Source: Caulobacteraceae bacterium (GTDB lineage Bacteria > Pseudomonadota > Alphaproteobacteria > Caulobacterales > Caulobacteraceae). Taken from it: a stretch of 42,799 nt of DNA. This document shows, one piece after another, positions 26,581-42,799 of the stretch. A model generated the notes under the pieces. That model did not search any database. It was not told the origin of the DNA and was given only the letters and a program-made list of their open reading frames with translations. The DNA is taken from contig JAYTXV010000460.1 of assembly GCA_043742805.1 (NCBI GenBank), forward strand, positions 1 to 42,799, read 5' to 3'. Both the position numbers and the translations under genes were made by a program. Position 1 is the first letter of the stretch. Every line of letters begins with the position of its first letter.

Positions 26581-27486
26581 TTGCAACAGATTCCACAGAC
26601 TCCGACGCCGATGGTCAGCGTTATCGTCCCGCACTACAGCGATCTAGCGGGCCTCGATCGCTGCCTTGATGCGCTCGAAGCGCAGACCTATCCCAAGGAA
26701 TGTTTCGAGATCGTCGTGGGAGACAACAATTCCCCCGAGGGCGCCGAAGCCGTGGCCCGGGTCGTGGCGGGGCGGGCGCGGCTGGCGATAGTGATGGAGA
26801 AAGGCGCGGGACCGGCGCGAAACGGCGCTTTGGCCCTGGCCCGCTTCGAGACTCTGGCCTTCACCGATTCCGATTGCGTTCCCCATCCGCAGTGGCTGGA
26901 ACACGGTGTCAGCGCGTTAGGGGAGCTCGATCTGGTCGGTGGGCGGATGACCGTGTTCCCGGTCGACACCGCCAACCCCAATCCGGTCGAGTCGTTCGAA
27001 CTGGTCTTCAGATTCGACAACGAAGACTATATCCGCCGGACGAATTTTACTGTGACGGCGAACCTGTTCACCCGACGGGGCATCTTCGACCAGGTGGGTG
27101 GTTTCCTGGCCACGGGTGTTTCCGAAGACGTCGAATGGTGCCACCGCGCGACGGCCGCCGGCTATCGGCTCGGCTACAAAGGCGACGTCATCGTTCGGCA
27201 CCCAGCGAGGCCGGACTGGCCCGCCCTGTGCAAGATGACGCGCCGCATGGACATGGAGATGTTCAAGCTGAGGGTGACGTCCGATGTGGCGCGGATCCGA
27301 TGGATACTTCGTGTCCTGTTTTATCCCTTATCGGCGGTCGCCCACACGCCCAAGGTTCTTTGGTCGCCCAATATCAGGGGCCCAGGGCAACGGTTAGGCG
27401 CCTTGGCCGTGCTTTATCGCATCCGACTGCTGCGCAGCGTGATTGGCTTCAACCTATTGGTCTCCGGCGTTCCGGGAACGGCTTAG
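26581..27486 (+). CDS. Glycosyltransferase family 2 (alternative start 26611)
   Basis: VSVIVPHY, IVVGDNNS, GPARNGA, FTDSDC (DxD), GGF...EDVEW. Confidence 0.9.
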   Translation: MQQIPQTPTPMVSVIVPHYSDLAGLDRCLDALEAQTYPKECFEIVVGDNNSPEGAEAVARVVAGRARLAIVMEKGAGPARNGALALARFETLAFTDSDCVPHPQWLEHGVSALGELDLVGGRMTVFPVDTANPNPVESFELVFRFDNEDYIRRTNFTVTANLFTRRGIFDQVGGFLATGVSEDVEWCHRATAAGYRLGYKGDVIVRHPARPDWPALCKMTRRMDMEMFKLRVTSDVARIRWILRVLFYPLSAVAHTPKVLWSPNIRGPGQRLGALAVLYRIRLLRSVIGFNLLVSGVPGTA

Positions 27487-27521: not shown

Positions 27522-28604
27522 TCATGCCACCATCGAGTTCGGAACTTCCGTGGAAGAGGCTTTCGGCGCGGCGAGATCGGCGCGATTTTCCCGCATGATA
27601 CGTTCCACTACAGGCGCCAGCGCCCGCGCCATGGCCTGATGGCCAAGCGCCGAAAGGTGCAGGTCGTGCTTGAAACGAAACTTGCGCCGCTGTTCGGGCG
27701 AATAGGCCCAAAGATCGGGGATTGCGTCATACAGATGACAGCCTGTGTCCGCCGCCAATTCGCGGAACCGCGCCTGATAGTTGGATGGATCGCTGGTCCC
27801 CTCGATGTCCGTCCACATTGGTATAGGAGCCAGCAGGACGGGCGTCGGACTTTGGCGGATCCAGTTTTCCAGGATTTTGCGCAGGAGTAGCCACCCCGGG
27901 TTGTCCGGTGAATCGTAGTCCGGAACCGGCTGGGTCTTGGTGATCTTCTGCATCAGGTCCCGAATTCCTAGGGTCTTCAGCACGGTGCGGACGCCTTCGT
28001 TCTGCACGACTGGACGAAGCGCCGCTGGTACATTGGAAATCTGCGCACCCCAATCCACATGGGGCGCATCCTCCAGGGCCATCGTGTCTTTTGTCAGCGG
28101 TCGTTTGGGCACGGGAATGTGGTGAAGCGTCAGTTCGCCGTTTTCAATTTGATAATAAGGCTTAGCGTAAAATACTTCCTGGCCGGCAGCATCACGAAAC
28201 CTCAGGAATCTGTAATTGACCCGCCGAACGTTTTCGGCATAAGGGCTGATGATCAGCAAATCATGCTCGACATCGCCGAATTCTCGGTAAGTGAGATACT
28301 GCTGGTCTGTTCCCGTTCCCGTCAAGGAGTAGTTAAATACTTCGAGGCCGGGCGCCAGGGTCTCCAGAATGTCGCTGAAGCGTTCGCCGTTCGAGACCCC
28401 GTCACCGGCCGTCTGGGAATCTCCGAACAAGACCGCGCGATACACACCCGGCGAGCGTTCCCGCGTGAACTCTCGATCAGAGCGAAACCCGGCCGCGTTG
28501 GTCTGTACACGGTAGCCGCCGTTTTCGAACGGAACCCTCGACTTGACGCTCGGCATGTAGGTGTAACCGATGCGTGGATGATAGCTCCACAGAGAGTGCC
28601 ACAT
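27522..28604 (-). CDS. SGNH/GDSL-fold protein (360 aa) with no export signal
   Basis: Block I FGDSQTAG, block II NYSLTGTGTDQ, block III PYAEN, block V DLH. ATG 28604 follows the stop of the upstream gene and GAGGCGGG. Confidence 0.85.
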   Translation of the reverse strand: MWHSLWSYHPRIGYTYMPSVKSRVPFENGGYRVQTNAAGFRSDREFTRERSPGVYRAVLFGDSQTAGDGVSNGERFSDILETLAPGLEVFNYSLTGTGTDQQYLTYREFGDVEHDLLIISPYAENVRRVNYRFLRFRDAAGQEVFYAKPYYQIENGELTLHHIPVPKRPLTKDTMALEDAPHVDWGAQISNVPAALRPVVQNEGVRTVLKTLGIRDLMQKITKTQPVPDYDSPDNPGWLLLRKILENWIRQSPTPVLLAPIPMWTDIEGTSDPSNYQARFRELAADTGCHLYDAIPDLWAYSPEQRRKFRFKHDLHLSALGHQAMARALAPVVERIMRENRADLAAPKASSTEVPNSMVA

Positions 28605-28617
28605 AGCGCGCCCGCCT

Positions 28618-29163
28618 CTATATCTTACTGTATCGTCTGGCCATACGTTCGCGGCGTTCCACGACAAGTTCATATTGGTCGCGTGGCCAGTCCTTGTAAT
28701 AAGCCGTGCGCTGCAGCGCTTCGGCGCCTGACAAAACGGCCGCAAGTCGATTGGCGACCACAATGAAATACGGGTCCTTGCCAGGCGGACCCGGGTAGCG
28801 GCTTGTTCTGGTCTTGGTGACGCCGGTGTTGAGGAATACGCCGTCCGCGATCAGTTCGGCATTGAGCGTGTCTACAAAATCGCTGATGCCCCACTGTAGT
28901 TGAATGCGTGGCGGAAACGCCATCACACGTGTCGACAGCGATGGGGTGTCCCGCAGTTCGACGGATTTTTCGCGGATGTAGGCGCGCACGTCGCCTTTCA
29001 AATAGACCGTTACGTCTACCTGGTCGGCGAGAATGGCGGAGCGCGCATAGGGGCAGGGCGCGAATTTTCCATTGTAGAATGGATTTTTAACGGTCACGAA
29101 CTCTTTTAGCCAAGCCCAGATGTCCTCACCGACGGCACTGTCAATCGAAGCTGTATCACTCAT
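28618..29163 (-). CDS. Hypothetical protein (181 aa) with a W..EF...N......PCPYA motif, loosely DUF1415-like
   Basis: GAGGGG RBS. Tightly packed in the operon (30 nt after the upstream stop, 13 nt before the downstream start). Confidence 0.75.
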   Translation of the reverse strand: MSDTASIDSAVGEDIWAWLKEFVTVKNPFYNGKFAPCPYARSAILADQVDVTVYLKGDVRAYIREKSVELRDTPSLSTRVMAFPPRIQLQWGISDFVDTLNAELIADGVFLNTGVTKTRTSRYPGPPGKDPYFIVVANRLAAVLSGAEALQRTAYYKDWPRDQYELVVERRERMARRYSKI

Positions 29164-29193
29164 GAGTCAGACGCCCCCTCACGCAAATTATGT

Positions 29194-29586
29194 TTAGAAC
29201 ATCGTGTAGCAGAGTATATCGACGTTGCCGTCGCTCACGTCAGCTTCATCTCTTAGCGCCCGTGCGATTTCGTGCAATCGCGGAGTCATGGCCGCCACGT
29301 GAATTTCACCCTGGCTTCTCCAGTATTTCGCCAGCGCCTCGATCAGCCCCTCCGGGTCGCCGCCGCCTGGGAACTCGAAGTCGGCGGGCCGCATCACCGC
29401 CAGGGTGGGCGGCTCGAAATAGCTCGTGACGCCGACCTCGCCCGCGCGGGCAAAAAAGGCGGGGCGTTCGGCAGACCGCCTTGCGTTCGCCAGGGGCGCC
29501 AACATTTCATCGAACACCGCCAAGGCGAGGGTGTCGGCGGAAGTTTCCGTGATCGATTCCGGATTGATCGTCTCAGTCGAGCTCAT
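29194..29586 (-). CDS. Hypothetical protein (130 aa) ending in the LCYTMF Tyr-shuttle-like motif
   Basis: GGAGGAG RBS. ATG overlaps the carbamoyltransferase 3' end by 14 nt. C-terminus is DGNVDILCYTMF*. Confidence 0.8.
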   Translation of the reverse strand: MSSTETINPESITETSADTLALAVFDEMLAPLANARRSAERPAFFARAGEVGVTSYFEPPTLAVMRPADFEFPGGGDPEGLIEALAKYWRSQGEIHVAAMTPRLHEIARALRDEADVSDGNVDILCYTMF

Positions 29587-31399
29587 GTTCACTCCTCCAG
29601 TCATCATTTTCCGGCCACTCCGGCTGCTCGCTTTTCCATAGCAGGCAGTCTTCGAGCACCAGCAGGTCCATCCCGGTTCGCATGAAGCACCGATAGGCGT
29701 CCTGCGGCGTGCAAACGATCGGCTCGCCCCGCACGTTGAACGAAGTGTTGACCAGAACAGGGCACCCGGTGAGCTGGTCGAAAGCCGATAGGATGCGGAA
29801 GAAATCAGGACTGCGTTCCTGGTCCACGGTCTGCACCCGGGCGCTGTAGTCGACGTGCGTCACCGCGGGAATGTCGCTTCTCTGCTGGTGCAGGATTGGC
29901 ATCATGTCGTCGCCGTCGGACACGGCCCGGTCCATAGGCAGCTGGCGTTCAGTTTTCACCGGCGCCACGAGCAGCATGTAGGGGCTCTCGCCCTCGATCT
30001 CGAAATAGTCCGCGGCGCGACCGGCGATCACCGCCGGCGCGAACGGCCGGAAGCTCTCCCGGAACTTCACCTTGAGGTTCATGGTGCTCTGCATTTCCGG
30101 GTTGCGCGGGTCGCCGAGGATCGACCGCGCGCCCAGCGAGCGTGGCCCGAATTCCATGCGTCCGCTGAAGTAACCCACCACCTTGCCGTCAGCGATCGCG
30201 CCGGCGACGGCCCGCGCCAACTCGTCGGGGTCGGCGATCTGGTGGTGGGGCCAATCCTGGCGATCAAGGATCGAGGTGACTTCGTGAGGGGCGAACCGCG
30301 GCCCGAGATAGCTTCCCATCAGGGAGTCGCCTTCGCGGTTCACCACGCGCGGGGCGCCGAGCATCTGGTGCGATACCAGGAGCGCGGCGCCTAGTGCGCC
30401 ACCCGCGTCGCCGGCGGCGGGCTGGACAAACAACCCATCGAGCCCCGACTCCCGGAGTACGCGGCCGTTGGCCACGCAATTGAGCGCGACACCGCCGGCC
30501 ATCACCAGGTTTTTGGTCCCGGTCAGGGCCGTCGCACAGGCCACCAGCTTAAGAACCACATCTTCGGTCACCTGCTGGATCGACGCGGCCAGGTCCATTT
30601 CCTTGCGAGAGATCATCGTGTCCGGGCGCCGCGCCGGGCCGCCGAACAGCGTCTCAAAACGCTCGTTGATCATCAGTCCGGTGTCGAGATAGCCGAAGTA
30701 ACTTGTATCCAATCGGAACGATCCGTCATCTTTTACATCGATCAGGACGTCACGGATGAGATCGGCGTATTTCGGCTCTCCATAGGGTGCGAGCCCCATC
30801 AGCTTATATTCACCCGAATTCACCTTGAATCCGCAGTAATAGGTAAACGCGCTGTAGAGCAGGCCCAGGGAGTGCGGATAGCGGATCTCCCTCAGCAGTT
30901 CCAAGGTCTTGCCGCTGCCGAAACCCAGGGTGCAGGTTGCCCATTCGCCCACGCCGTCGATGGTTAGTATCGCCGCTTCGTCGAACGGCGACGGGTAGAA
31001 GCAACTCGCGGCATGGGCCATGTGATGATGTGTGCCAAGCAGGCGTGGCGTCTCGCCGAGAACCGAGTCGATGTCGTCGCGAAGGCGCGCCTTGGCTCCC
31101 AGCATCCCGCGACAGGCGGCCACGAACTGGTCGCGTCCGGCCGGCGCGACCGACAACGCATTTTTCATCACACGGTCAAGTGTCAGCAGGGGATTGTCAT
31201 AGAACACCACCCCTTCGAGTTCCGAAGGGTCGATGAAGGCCTCGCCCAGACAGTAGTTGATGGCTTGCCGAGGAAAGCGAGGGTCGTGCTTCTTGCGTGA
31301 GAAGCGCTCTTCCTGAGCCGCCGCGATGATCACGCCGTCTCGCACAAGCGCCGCAGCGGCGTCATGGTAATAGGCTGAAATACCGAGGACATAACCCAT
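29573..31399 (-). CDS. O-carbamoyltransferase, NodU/CmcH/TobZ family (SxtI-like)
   Basis: HDAAAAL, EERFSRKKH, HHMAHA, DGVGE, EYKLMGLAPYG, GGVALN, GDAG, GRMEFGPRSLGARS, KFRESFRPFAP, VNTSFN. Confidence 0.96.
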   Translation of the reverse strand: MGYVLGISAYYHDAAAALVRDGVIIAAAQEERFSRKKHDPRFPRQAINYCLGEAFIDPSELEGVVFYDNPLLTLDRVMKNALSVAPAGRDQFVAACRGMLGAKARLRDDIDSVLGETPRLLGTHHHMAHAASCFYPSPFDEAAILTIDGVGEWATCTLGFGSGKTLELLREIRYPHSLGLLYSAFTYYCGFKVNSGEYKLMGLAPYGEPKYADLIRDVLIDVKDDGSFRLDTSYFGYLDTGLMINERFETLFGGPARRPDTMISRKEMDLAASIQQVTEDVVLKLVACATALTGTKNLVMAGGVALNCVANGRVLRESGLDGLFVQPAAGDAGGALGAALLVSHQMLGAPRVVNREGDSLMGSYLGPRFAPHEVTSILDRQDWPHHQIADPDELARAVAGAIADGKVVGYFSGRMEFGPRSLGARSILGDPRNPEMQSTMNLKVKFRESFRPFAPAVIAGRAADYFEIEGESPYMLLVAPVKTERQLPMDRAVSDGDDMMPILHQQRSDIPAVTHVDYSARVQTVDQERSPDFFRILSAFDQLTGCPVLVNTSFNVRGEPIVCTPQDAYRCFMRTGMDLLVLEDCLLWKSEQPEWPENDDWRSEHELD

Positions 31400-38554: not shown

Positions 38555-40399
38555 TTAAGTTGTCTGCGACTTGGCGTCCGCGACATCGTCGAACGAGCCG
38601 TGACTGGAAGCGTAGAGCCTCGCATAGAGGCCGGCGTTGGCCATCAGGGCCTCGTGCGGCCCCTGTTCGACGATCCGACCGTCACGCAGCACAATAATCT
38701 GGTCGGCGTCGCGCACCGTGGCCAATCGATGGGCGATAACCAGACAGGTGCGGCCGGCGAACAATACGCGTAGCGCCCGCTGGATCGCCTGTTCGGTGAA
38801 GCTGTCGATATTGGCCGTCGCCTCGTCGAGGATCAGGATTCTCGGGTTGGCCACCAGCGTCCTGGCAAACGAGATAAGCTGGCGCTGGCCTACCGAAAGG
38901 TTGCGGCCTCGCTGGCCCAGCTGCGTGTCGTAGCCGCCCGGCAGACGCATGATGAACTCGTGGGCCGACACCGCCCTGGCGGCCGACACCACATCCTCGC
39001 GGCTGGCCAACAGCGTATTGTAGCGGATGTTCTCCCCGATCGTGCCGGAGAACAGGAACGGTTCCTGCAGCACCATGCCGACCATCCGCCCCAGCGATTC
39101 CAGGCTGACATCCCGAATATCCTGGCCACCGACCAGAATCCGACCGGCGTTGGTGTCATAGAACCGGTTGACGAGGGCGGTGATGCTGGTCTTGCCCGAA
39201 CCCGTGGGGCCGACCAGGGCCACCACCTGCCTGGGTTCCACCTTCAGGCTGATATCGTGCAGGACAGGCCGGCCCGGGGCGTAGCCGAAGGTGACGTGGT
39301 CGAGTTCGACGGTCGGCGGCGCGTCCTTCAGCACGATCGCGTCCGGCTTGTCGGCGATGGTCACGGGCACGTCGAGCACCTCGAAGATCCGGTGTCCGGC
39401 CGCCATGGCCCGCTGCATCACCGTATATTGCATCGACAGCAGGCGCACCGGTTCGAAGAACCGCTGGACCGAAAGGATGAAGGTCACCAGCACCCCGACG
39501 GCGAGTGATCCGCCCAGAACTTCGTTGCCGCCGACCACGATGATGCAGGCCATGGCGACGCCGGTGAGAATATCGACGGTCGGCGTCATTACCTGGGCCA
39601 GCCAGGACGACGCGGTCTGGGCGTGGAAATTCTCCCGGGCCTTTTCCTCATAGAGAGCGAAGTTCAGTGCCTCGCGCCGGGTTTCCTGGACGGTGCGCAC
39701 GCCGTTGATGTTCTCGGCCAGGGCTCCGTTGGCGATCGACGAGGCGTCCCGCGCCCGGCGAAAGGTGGCCTTGGAATAGGGCAGCCAAACCGCCCGCACC
39801 GCGATCAGGGCGGGAATCGTGGCCAGGGTCAAGGCGCCCAGGCGCCAGTCCATCCACAGCAGGATTACCGCATAGCCGAACAGGGTGGTGAAATCACCCA
39901 GCGCCCCGGTGGAGCTTTCGAGGAATTCCTGCAGCGCGTTCACGTCACCCTGCAGACGGCTCATGATCCGGCCCACATGGGTCTTGTCCATGAAGGTCAG
40001 GGCCACGTCCTGGAAGTGGGCGAACATCGCCCGGCGCACGTCGAAGATCACCCGCTGTGCCAGGCGCGAGGTCAGCCACTGGTCGCAGAAATTGGAGGCG
40101 GCGTTGACCACCACCAACATGGCGAACACCGTCAGAAGGGTGCGAAGGCCGGGCAGATCCCGCGCCACCGCCGCGTTGAGGATGGTCCCGATCATCCAGG
40201 GCGTGGCGACACTGGTCAGGGATGAGACCAACACCGCCGCTTGCGCGCCGATCAGGATGGCCCGGTGAGGTTCGAGAAACGCCAGAAACCGCCGGACGAT
40301 CCGGGTGTCGAATGACGCGAAGATTTCTTCCTCGTCCGGCGTGCCCAGATTGGCGTTCGGCCGGGGGGCCGCCGCATTATCTGCGATGGTATCGGTCAC
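38555..40399 (-). CDS. ABC exporter, fused TMD-NBD half-transporter (consensus Walker B)
   Basis: GTGA overlap with the upstream gene. TM domain, GPTGSGKT, LSVGQRQ, LILDEAT, IAHRL. Confidence 0.93.
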   Translation of the reverse strand: MTDTIADNAAAPRPNANLGTPDEEEIFASFDTRIVRRFLAFLEPHRAILIGAQAAVLVSSLTSVATPWMIGTILNAAVARDLPGLRTLLTVFAMLVVVNAASNFCDQWLTSRLAQRVIFDVRRAMFAHFQDVALTFMDKTHVGRIMSRLQGDVNALQEFLESSTGALGDFTTLFGYAVILLWMDWRLGALTLATIPALIAVRAVWLPYSKATFRRARDASSIANGALAENINGVRTVQETRREALNFALYEEKARENFHAQTASSWLAQVMTPTVDILTGVAMACIIVVGGNEVLGGSLAVGVLVTFILSVQRFFEPVRLLSMQYTVMQRAMAAGHRIFEVLDVPVTIADKPDAIVLKDAPPTVELDHVTFGYAPGRPVLHDISLKVEPRQVVALVGPTGSGKTSITALVNRFYDTNAGRILVGGQDIRDVSLESLGRMVGMVLQEPFLFSGTIGENIRYNTLLASREDVVSAARAVSAHEFIMRLPGGYDTQLGQRGRNLSVGQRQLISFARTLVANPRILILDEATANIDSFTEQAIQRALRVLFAGRTCLVIAHRLATVRDADQIIVLRDGRIVEQGPHEALMANAGLYARLYASSHGSFDDVADAKSQTT

Positions 40400-42306
40400 G
40401 CAGCGGCCTCCGCCAGTTTGCGGCGCAGCCGGGCGTCGGCGATGGAGAGGCCTTGTTCGGCGCGGGTTTGAAGGGCGAACAGGTCGGCGTATTCGCCGCC
40501 CAGCCCGATCAGCTCGGCGTGGGTTCCACGTTCGACGATCCGGCCGGCCTCGAGCACGATGATCTGATCGGCGTGCATCAGGCTGGAGAGCCGATGAGCA
40601 ATGATGATCGTCGCCTTGGACGCGGTGGCTTGCGCCAGGGCGTCGCGCACCTTCTTCTCGGTCACCGCGTCGATGGCGGCTGTGGAGTCGTCGAAGATCA
40701 TCACCCCGGGACCCGGAACCACACCCCTGGCGATCGACATCCGCTGACGCTGGCCGCCCGACAGCGCCACGCCGCGTTCGCCCACCCGTGTTTCGTAGGC
40801 GCCGGGCAGGGCGGCCACATAGTCGTGAATCTGGGCGACGCTGGCGGCGCGCACGATCCGGTCCTCCTCGGCCCACGGGTCGGCGTAGGCGACGTTGTTG
40901 GTCACCGTGGCGTCGAACAGGAACGCCTCCTGCTGAACCAGGCCCACGTGGTTGCGCAGGGAGGCCAGGGTCACGTCGCGCAAATCCTGGCCGTCGATAG
41001 TGACCCGACCGGCGGTCACGTCGTAAAAACGGGGGACCAGATTGGCGATGGTGGACTTGCCCGATCCCGGCGGCCCGACGACGCCGAGGCTGCGGCCGGG
41101 CGTCACCTCGAAGCTGATGTCATGCAGCACGGGCGCGCCGGGGTCGTAGGCGAAGTCCACATGCTCGAAGCGCAGCACGCCTTCGGTGACGATCAGGTCG
41201 CGGGCGGCCGGTTTGTCGGCCACCGTGGGCTCCAGGTCGAGAATCTCGAACAGGCGCGATCCCGAGGTGGTGGCCCGGGCTGCGGCCGCGACGATCATGG
41301 CGATCTGTCGGATCGGCGACTGCAGCAGGGTCATGTAAGTCAGGAACTCGGTCAGCCGTCCGGCGGTCATCCGGCCCGCGGCCACCTGTCCGCCGCCGTA
41401 CCAAAGCAACAGGCCCATCGAGCCATAGAAACTCAAGGTCATCACCGACACGGCCTGGAAGCGCAGGAAGATGCGCCGATAGGAATAGGCCAGGGCGGCG
41501 TTGGCCGCGTCGTCGAACTTGGCCAGCTCGAAGCTCTTGGCGGCGAACGACCTCACAACCCTGATCCCTTGAAGGTTCTCCTCCATGGTCAGGGTCAGGA
41601 TGCTCATCAGGCGCTGAACGTGCAGCCAGGTGACCCGCAGCATGAACCCCATGCGCGCCAGCACCACGCTGGCCAGGGGCGTGAAGGCCAGACCCAGCGC
41701 CGCCATTGCCGGATCGGTGGCGATCATCTGGCTGGCTGCGATGCCGACCAGCAGGATCATGGTCAGAGCGACCAGCAGGCCATTCTGAATGAACGACCGC
41801 GCGCCCTCCAGATCGAGCATCCCCCGGGTGATCAGATCGCCCGAATGGATTTTGTCGTGAAAGCCGAACGATAGCCGCTGGAGCTGGCGGAAGAAATCGA
41901 GCCGATACCTATAGGCGACCTTCTGGCTGACGTATTCAGCCTGATAGTTGGCGGTCATGGTCAGGAACCCGCGCGTGGCGGTGGCAAGGATCACCAGCGC
42001 CGCGGTGATCAGCAGGGCTTGGCGCGCCTCATGGGCGGCGAGGGCCTGGGCCGAGCCATGGACGAGGCCGGCGATGCCGAGCAGCTTCTGGGCTTCGTTG
42101 ACTGCGCCGCCGAACAGCCTGGGCAGGCTGAGGCTGGCCAACGCCGCGCCCAGCGAGGCGCCCACGGCCACCGCGACACGAGCCCGCTCAAGCTTCACCG
42201 CCTCGCCGGCGATGCGCCGAAGTATGCGCGGCATGGCCGCGACGTTGATGGCCTTGGGATCTGGCGCGATGGGCGCGCGAACGCCGTCGCCGGGTGGCGG
42301 GGGCAT
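40396..42306 (-). CDS. ABC exporter, fused TMD-NBD half-transporter (degenerate Walker B); start uncertain
   Basis: TM domain, GPPGSGKS, LSGGQRQR, IFDDST, IAHRL. Confidence 0.9.
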   Translation of the reverse strand: MPPPPGDGVRAPIAPDPKAINVAAMPRILRRIAGEAVKLERARVAVAVGASLGAALASLSLPRLFGGAVNEAQKLLGIAGLVHGSAQALAAHEARQALLITAALVILATATRGFLTMTANYQAEYVSQKVAYRYRLDFFRQLQRLSFGFHDKIHSGDLITRGMLDLEGARSFIQNGLLVALTMILLVGIAASQMIATDPAMAALGLAFTPLASVVLARMGFMLRVTWLHVQRLMSILTLTMEENLQGIRVVRSFAAKSFELAKFDDAANAALAYSYRRIFLRFQAVSVMTLSFYGSMGLLLWYGGGQVAAGRMTAGRLTEFLTYMTLLQSPIRQIAMIVAAAARATTSGSRLFEILDLEPTVADKPAARDLIVTEGVLRFEHVDFAYDPGAPVLHDISFEVTPGRSLGVVGPPGSGKSTIANLVPRFYDVTAGRVTIDGQDLRDVTLASLRNHVGLVQQEAFLFDATVTNNVAYADPWAEEDRIVRAASVAQIHDYVAALPGAYETRVGERGVALSGGQRQRMSIARGVVPGPGVMIFDDSTAAIDAVTEKKVRDALAQATASKATIIIAHRLSSLMHADQIIVLEAGRIVERGTHAELIGLGGEYADLFALQTRAEQGLSIADARLRRKLAEAAA

Positions 42307-42489
42307 GAGTCTTGAATCCGCGAGGCTTGAAAGGCGATATTGAACGCCTGCGGCCTTGATGGCTAGGCCGTTCGCCCCCTTCGGTAGGTTCCATTTGAGG
42401 GAATACGGCCTGGAAAATCGCCAGTTTATGACATTGACGCCACCACGATCGGTCTGGCGGGCTGAGGTTGCAGCTACTGCACGCTGGGC

Positions 42490-42687
42490 CTGGTCGCCGG
42501 CCCGGCCTTCAGCGCCGCCGACGTGTATTTCGGCTCGCAGATCGGCTGGGGAATGCAGTTCGGATCGATGGAGAAACGCCCGGCCTTCGAAGTCTATTGG
42601 GCGCGCATCAGCAACCGTCCGGCCGCGATCCGCGCCCGTGAGATCGATGACGCCCCGATCCCGGCGCAGGCGGCCCCGGCCGGCTGA
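42490..42687 (+). pseudogene. C-terminal remnant of a glutathione S-transferase
   Basis: LVAGPAFSAADVYFGSQIGWGMQFGSMEKRPAFEVYWARISNRPAAIRAREIDDA...* contains the GST N-capping box (S/T)xAD. In-frame stop at 42463 and no N-terminal thioredoxin-fold part. Confidence 0.8.
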
Positions 42688-42799
42688 CTCATTACCCGCG
42701 CCAAATGCCCGCCCGACCACGGAGAAATTCGAGACCGACGTCGTTTCAGCCGGTGACGGGCAAACCGTGAAAGGCGCGCACGAGGGGTAGCATGACCTG

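Follow-up and report, generated by a model that had tools for sequence, protein, structure and literature searches.

Can the acyl-tyrosine relay of envelope acylation serve for carbamoyl groups, and can it do so without a membrane? This question is raised by a compact four-gene cassette of a Caulobacteraceae bacterium (contig JAYTXV010000460.1), located in a stretch of 42,799 nucleotides that is called the window below. The cassette encodes, in this order, a carbamoyltransferase (CT), a 130-residue protein ending in LCYTMF, a 181-residue protein and an SGNH protein, spaced by a 14-nucleotide overlap, a 30-nucleotide gap and a 13-nucleotide gap (Table 1). The first-pass annotation of this DNA had reported the same four open reading frames (ORFs), lengths and spacings, the 130 residues being counted from the second ATG, and its assignment of a NodU/CmcH-type CT, an SGNH product and a small protein with that ending was confirmed by Pfam and sequence. 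It had also proposed that the small protein shuttles carbamoyl groups from the CT to the SGNH protein. As seen below, it is highly probable that these three form a real three-part module with a physical link between the CT and the small protein (the proposed carbamoyl carrier, hereafter the carrier), and a relay over the tail tyrosine is moderately favoured as its mechanism.

The proposed carrier family and its tail tyrosine

The carrier has no match in Pfam, NCBIfam or PHROG. By word index, 38 close homologues were retrieved, and 336 of 1.84 billion representatives matched a profile at E ≤ 0.001; the tail statistics come from the best 150 of these 336 matches together with the close homologues, making 188 distinct sequences. 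Among them, 182 end in Y-x-[ML]-[FY], and the remaining six appear by eye to be gene calls that are frameshifted, fused or cut. The tyrosine is present in all 182 tails and is never replaced by phenylalanine, the terminal residue being phenylalanine in 155 and tyrosine in 27. Thus, the invariant terminal Y-x-x-F expected by the first-pass annotation holds for the tyrosine but not for the last residue, and the motif reads Y-x-[ML]-[FY]. Position -6 is phenylalanine in 99 of the 182 and leucine in 55, the window protein having leucine, and position -5 is cysteine in 77; a tail cysteine as the carrier residue was rejected, being present in just those 77.

As a control for circularity, the last 12 residues were cut from both the profile and the targets, and 148 of the 150 matches still scored E ≤ 1e-3, with 145 of these 148 being tailed. 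Moreover, among 100 diverse members at 34% mean identity, the tail tyrosine is the sole invariant column, while the conserved residues of the body include Y56, F70 and W89. The Y-x-[ML]-[FY] tail is far beyond chance, because it is present in 182 of 188 homologues, versus a Y-x-x-[FY] ending in 6 of the 8,220 ORFs of at least 100 residues in the own genome, shadow ORFs included.

Regarding its structure, the carrier is predicted as a helical domain (pLDDT 77) with a low-confidence tail. The fold search with this model returned generic helical matches only (best Z 5.9), no PDB sequence matched below E 0.05, so that no solved relative emerged by sequence, and ESM matches to LuxE and GH3 were disregarded, with scores below 0.9. 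In viruses, the tail-domain family had 16 pattern matches, none of them confirmed, and a plasmid search seeded with a distant family member gave no match.

A conserved three-gene module

In the close subfamily, the four genes are present at each of the 25 GTDB loci, in the order of the window at 24 of them, and these loci are spread over Pseudomonadota, Planctomycetota, Gemmatimonadota, Acidobacteriota, Myxococcota and Verrucomicrobia; one SGNH gene is truncated by the contig end, and two loci have split genes. The split SGNH or CT genes (L011:3110-4232 and L014:4979-8273, with the locus numbers of this analysis) may be assembly errors or decay. The distant subfamily comprises 88 loci, namely the 80 best of 93 metagenome loci, collected with a pattern that required the tail, seven Myxococcota genomes and one plasmid. 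A CT was found in 76 and an SGNH gene in 41 of the 88, most misses being short contigs; where 3.6 kb or more of upstream sequence was available, which was the case for 36 loci, both were always present.

A search seeded with SGNH only over three genome samples (401, 301 and 401 genomes) gave seven new genome loci, with a CT in all seven and the tail domain in six, as a separate gene in four and within a single SGNH-CT-tail protein in two. These triple fusions belong to two Planctomycetota genomes (L131:5493-8807 and L132:8389-12003) and have 1,104 and 1,204 residues, ending in YVMY and YVMF, respectively. In addition, one metagenome contig carries a CT-tail fusion (L099:807-3044). The co-occurrence with CT and SGNH genes claimed by the first-pass annotation was therefore borne out in the close loci, in the distant loci with enough room and in natural fusions, and nothing at this level pointed to an unconserved tail or to homologues occurring without CT and SGNH genes. 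Its four-gene unit, however, did not hold: the conserved unit is three genes (CT, SGNH and carrier), and the 181-residue gene, found in none of the 88 distant loci, is confined to one subclade. A quick tree was built from 40 CTs: the 21 with a tail partner fall together on a single branch (SH-aLRT 99), inside which the seven CTs of the four-gene type are nested (SH-aLRT 100), and SxtJK-type and gvg-like CTs fall outside it.

Another SGNH-CT fusion, without CT catalytic motifs or tail (L128:5599-8805), faces an intact CT. Genes for a polysaccharide deacetylase and a heme-oxygenase-like protein are close by.

The carbamoyltransferase and its predicted complex with the small protein

The CT has both CmcH/NodU domains (PF02543 and PF16861) with the metal and nucleotide motifs, located at H12, H125/H129, D148, D331 and K443, whose roles we assume from TobZ. 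It is the only CT found in its own genome, which is 87.7% complete, and a sequence search retrieved NovN, GdmN, TobZ and 7xb6 as CTs of solved structure. The predicted complex of CT and carrier scored 0.93, versus 0.00 for the best control, with at least 83% of the contacts agreeing between runs and a partner pLDDT of at least 78; the same mark was reached by 116 of 157 solved pairs and 2 of 215 mismatched ones, a benchmark that is approximate for the alignment used here. In the model, carrier residues 17-115 lie against CT residues 65-233 and 341-346, at the N-terminal domain, the one that carries out the transfer in TobZ.

The SGNH protein

The SGNH protein has the SGNH/GDSL residues of block I (S63), block III (N125) and block V (D314-x-H316), with block III reading E-N-[IV]-R-R. 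Among the 63 rows of its clade, the serine and the histidine are each present in 63, the block III asparagine in 60 and the aspartate in 50. No membrane segment was found in any cassette protein by hydropathy only, without signal-peptide prediction: the highest 19-residue value is 0.99 for the carrier and 0.91 for the window SGNH protein, and 62 SGNH relatives range from 0.77 to 1.76, most of them beginning right at the domain. The absence of MBOAT and membrane components assumed by the first-pass annotation was thus upheld for the cassette. Judging from sequence, the SGNH protein appears to be cytoplasmic, unlike the extracytoplasmic SGNH proteins of the Dlt and Pat systems.

Comparison with known systems

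In DltX and PatA, an acyl group on the tyrosine of a terminal FXYXXF passes to an SGNH serine, as described in the available text of PMC12148441. According to the same text, DltB/DltX/DltD and PatA/PatB share with the cassette a C-terminal hexapeptide with an invariant tyrosine and a terminal aromatic residue, always beside an SGNH protein, and in both the shuttle tail is either borne by a small protein of its own or joined to the enzyme that loads it. Meanwhile, the cassette differs in having no MBOAT or membrane segment, an apparently cytoplasmic SGNH protein, an ATP-dependent CT as the loader, a first F of the motif that is not fixed and a carrier body consisting of a 120-residue helical domain. 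No MBOAT was found in the cassette or in the scanned flanks of the 25 close loci, and only 6 of the 88 distant loci have one nearby. In its mechanism the cassette would resemble the Dlt/Pat shuttles, yet it falls outside that group, having no MBOAT and no membrane parts.

The SxtI-SxtJ-SxtK-SxtL module has a CT of the same broad branch, the window CT being 55-59% identical to three CTs beside SxtJ/K-type genes, and it shares the Y-T-[LM]-F tail and an adjacent GDSL/SGNH gene. The PFIYTLF ending attributed to SxtK by the first-pass annotation was recovered, as SxtK/DUF5989 proteins end in PFIYTLF or PFIYTIF in all three plasmid loci fetched. However, SxtJ and SxtK are small membrane proteins, and the cassette has one soluble, unrelated domain instead; a further difference is that SxtL has been described as a hydrolase. 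SxtJ-type or DUF5989 proteins were not found beside the CT, as the two small proteins have no Pfam match and no hydrophobic segment and the CT branch is separate; DUF5989 was not found in the own genome either, in a search whose control was undetected too.

The gvg-type clusters, not mentioned by the first-pass annotation, are a closer soluble precedent for the cassette. In Pseudomonas fluorescens WH6, deleting gvgA (lipase/esterase), gvgB (lysine-rich), gvgF (CT) or gvgG each abolishes the product FVG, and the cluster also needs gvgC, according to the available text of 10.1101/080572; gvgA, B, C and F are described as the core of gvg-like clusters in that of PMC8064604, whose supplement has two rows with GvgB matching only at residues 29/30-37. 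The likeness lies in a four-gene core of SGNH protein, CT, tiny ORF and oxidase, whereas in gvg the carrier is a 27-44-residue lysine-rich peptide, the oxidase is heme-oxygenase-like or a dioxygenase, the SGNH protein is of a divergent subfamily, and the clusters also contain exporters and tailoring genes. A basic micro-ORF ending in Y-P-x-[FR] was found in 6 of the 6 gvg-like loci examined (Table 1), and these are likely GvgB equivalents, forming a further scaffold for the tyrosine tail. A carbamoyl-tyrosine relay was not found in the literature searched, subscription journals being mostly outside it; the soluble scaffold and the triple fusions are new here.

The 181-residue protein and its phage relatives

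The 181-residue protein, to which the first-pass annotation had assigned no role, has 316 homologues with an invariant P-C-P, and gave no Pfam or NCBIfam family match, nothing in Foldseek at E ≤ 0.001 and likewise nothing in the PDB sequence search, the ESM and Pfam near-matches to DUF6875 and DUF1415 being below the cut-offs. DUF6875 (cytochrome P422) is a Cys-ligated heme family hydroxylating tryptophan, and AglA is a Cys-ligated guanidine N-hydroxylase, as described in the available texts of 10.64898/2025.12.11.692455 and PMC12866846. Among 41 relatives of the 181-residue protein, 21 match DUF6875 at E ≤ 5, with 2.7e-4 as the best value and no match for the window protein, and the family keeps the Cys-Pro of the P422 motif without RxGxV, with KF[AP]PCP in place of RxGxVCP. 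AglA is the top structural match among 48,161 chains (Z 6.0, root-mean-square deviation 4.0, 141 aligned), lying within 1 Z of unrelated rows. The YqcI/YcgG profile match is 2% (E 0.023; reversed control 0.45%), with Cys37 in register with the YqcI/YcgG cysteine. The likeness to P422 and YqcI/YcgG is an invariant Cys-Pro in the N-terminal region, in register with the heme ligand, but every score is under the family cut-offs and the heme site is putative. Each of these three leads is non-significant alone, and heme binding by the 181-residue protein has a shade better than an even chance; a role as accessory heme-thiolate oxygenase, acting on the carrier-bound group or on the acceptor, is weakly suggested.

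Viral contigs (L152-L175) supplied 24 loci with phage relatives of this protein. At 17 of them, about 14 being independent, the relative stands directly behind a basic peptide ending in P[FY]IYx. In six it is fused to a SAM methyltransferase or lies next to one, neither arrangement is seen in one locus, and a CT is present within four. Thus, the 181-residue family follows a Tyr-tailed partner on two unrelated scaffolds, the bacterial 130-residue protein and the phage basic peptide, and this link to Tyr-tailed partners in bacteria and phages is new.

Genomic context and acceptor

Around the 25 close loci, no conserved biosynthetic cluster was found, as no family outside the core and shadow ORFs occurs in more than 4 of the 25; this flank scan covered 198 of 223 selected ORFs, the 25 left out coming from L001 and L002. 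A deacetylase follows the SGNH gene in one close locus, and a GT2 glycosyltransferase is present in two, both from Caulobacterales, and was rejected as a fixed partner. Around the 88 distant loci, with family names taken from representatives only, the recurring genes are polysaccharide deacetylases (27), GT4 glycosyltransferases (14), carbamoyl-phosphate synthase (11), a second CT (10), sugar epimerases (8), acetyltransferases (7) and MBOATs (6). This context of the distant loci suggests that the molecule modified, in the cytoplasm, is a glycan precursor. The polysaccharide deacetylase (L087:9352-10173 and 26 other distant loci) has no obvious signal peptide and stands mostly directly after the tail gene; this suggests amino-sugar deacetylation followed by N-carbamoylation.

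A HemK-like methyltransferase was observed between the CT and the tail gene at L078:4194-5429 and L087:7737-9014, with relatives in 11 distant loci.

Proposed mechanism and rival explanations

The full relay, with the SGNH protein as terminal transferase, is the best single mechanism, towards which sequence, modelling and analogy lean with modest confidence: the carbamoyl group would travel, bound to the tail tyrosine of the small protein, to the serine of the SGNH protein, with terminal transfer to a cytoplasmic acceptor. CTs of this family form carbamoyl-AMP from carbamoyl phosphate and ATP, and the window CT, having the motifs, would do the same. According to the prediction, the small protein docks with its helical body on the N-terminal, acceptor-side domain of the CT, and its flexible tail would then bring Tyr127 into the CT site for O-carbamoylation, by analogy with DltX and PatA. 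Ser63 of the SGNH protein may accept the group and transfer it onward, and the acceptor, for the distant members only, would likely be a sugar precursor of a surface glycan. In favour of the relay, carbamoyl-phosphate synthase genes flank 11 of the 88 distant loci, and a terminal tyrosine stands beside the same enzymes on other scaffolds, namely SxtK and the gvg-like micro-ORFs. If true, the relay would extend the acyl-tyrosine logic of envelope acylation to carbamoyl, in the cytoplasm and without MBOAT, would give a role to the small ORFs and GDSL proteins of a large CT branch (SxtK/SxtL and GvgB/GvgA) and would question their labelling as unknown or hydrolases. Its all-soluble parts and natural single-chain fusions make an easy test system for mass spectrometry.

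Several points weigh against the relay. The need for a shuttle is left unexplained in a system without a membrane, because TobZ, NovN and GdmN carbamoylate their acceptors directly. The modelled complex covers the CT and the carrier only, with the SGNH protein outside, and of the complex expected by the first-pass annotation the binding to the CT stood but not the docking of the tail: carrier residues 116-130 are not among the confident CT contacts, so the model supports CT-carrier binding and not the relay. In the model of the carrier itself, tail residues 127-130 have a pLDDT below 50, and the first F of FxYxxF is kept in only 99 of the 182 tails. The surroundings of the 25 close loci have no conserved gene that would define an acceptor; one of the seven SGNH-seeded loci (L128) has its SGNH protein fused to a degenerate CT and is without the tail domain; and several loci are near-duplicates, so that the counts overstate independence. 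Moreover, the micro-ORF parallel is drawn from gvg-like loci, the WH6 GvgB sequence not being among them. The gvg knockouts lower the transcription of the whole cluster, hence an indirect phenotype, according to the available texts of 10.1101/080572, PMC8064604 and PMC8067088, and SxtL has been proposed as a decarbamoylase in those of PMC2679770 and PMC3037375.

A tentative and on balance improbable extension of the relay is a carrier-protein assembly line, in which the tethered carbamoyl group would be tailored on the 130-residue carrier, then handed on by the SGNH protein. The tailoring here would be N-hydroxylation by the 181-residue heme-thiolate enzyme, and elsewhere methylation by the methyltransferases in the neighbouring slot. 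If true, this would explain a shuttle without a membrane, the link of the 181-residue protein to Tyr-tailed peptides and the source of the N-O bond in gvg-type products.

Among the rivals of the relay, it is unlikely that the tyrosine is carbamoylated while the SGNH protein is a hydrolase, freeing a possibly oxidised carbamate from the carrier or decarbamoylating the product. The intact Ser-His-Asp triad fits hydrolysis equally well, the proposal for SxtL agrees with it, and FVG, whose cluster needs a CT and an SGNH-type protein, is not known to carry a carbamoyl group. However, loss of the SGNH protein in gvg abolishes rather than raises the product, an indirect observation as far as the published account goes, and strict co-inheritance and fusion with the CT would amount to a futile cycle unless the tethered group were altered first. 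It is slightly less likely still that the small protein is a non-covalent subunit, with its body activating or positioning a CT that carbamoylates directly and its aromatic tail docking the SGNH protein. Such a subunit would agree with the confident interface, which uses residues 17-115, including Y56, F70 and W89, and not the tail, and the available text of 10.1101/080572 speaks of small membrane proteins that help SxtI and GvgF; however, the tyrosine is never phenylalanine in 182 tails while its neighbours vary, which points to the hydroxyl, and DltX and PatA have this same tail in acylated form (available text of PMC12148441). Lastly, a reading in which the tail itself is the final substrate, as a precursor peptide that would be carbamoylated, oxidised by the 181-residue enzyme and cleaved into a small product, is very improbable, as the tail is fused to enzymes of 1,100-1,200 residues, costly for a consumed precursor, the 181-residue gene is missing from all 88 distant loci and no exporter or protease is conserved, even though the four-gene cassette is self-contained and its 181-residue protein resembles enzymes oxidising aromatic or guanidino groups and follows a Tyr-tailed peptide in bacteria as well as at 17 of 24 phage loci.

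Layout of the locus and neighbouring genes

Table 1. Positions of the cassette parts and their neighbour in the window, followed by the unannotated lysine-rich micro-ORFs of gvg-like loci (given as locus and stop position).
Feature	Position	Strand	Basis
Carbamoyltransferase (CT), CmcH/NodU family, SxtI/GvgF-like branch, 608 residues	29573..31399	-	PF02543 E 4e-85, PF16861 E 2e-71
130-residue soluble helical protein, proposed carbamoyl carrier, ends VDILCYTMF	29194..29586	-	family alignment, predicted CT binding
Tyr127 codon, invariant tail tyrosine	29206..29208	-	sequence, alignment
181-residue protein, Cys37 in an invariant P-C-P, possible heme-thiolate oxygenase with distant likeness to DUF6875/P422 and YqcI/YcgG	28618..29163	-	
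Soluble SGNH protein, 360 residues, Ser63/Asn125/Asp314/His316, proposed terminal carbamoyl transferase	27522..28604	-	PF13472 E 1e-11
GT2 glycosyltransferase, convergent neighbour	26581..27486	+	Pfam match
Micro-ORF ending IYPLR	L135:9071		
Micro-ORF ending IYPLR	L136:9338		
Micro-ORF ending IYPMF	L137:5950		
Micro-ORF ending IYPFF	L128:9293		
Micro-ORF ending IYPMF	L150:8093		
Micro-ORF ending TYPLR	L151, about 8240		

The GT2 glycosyltransferase is probably outside the cassette. The nearest relatives of the locus are Caulobacterales genomes. The third-position guanine-cytosine (GC) content is 0.64 in the 181-residue gene and 0.67 in the SGNH gene, versus 0.82 in two flanking genes, and the SGNH protein was detected in 3 of 401 sampled Pseudomonadota genomes and not in the single same-genus genome searched; the low third-position GC and the patchy SGNH distribution fit a horizontal spread. 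Elsewhere in the window, positions 38555-42720 show an ordinary arrangement, with a tandem pair of ABC transporter genes upstream of lemA and two TPM-domain genes.

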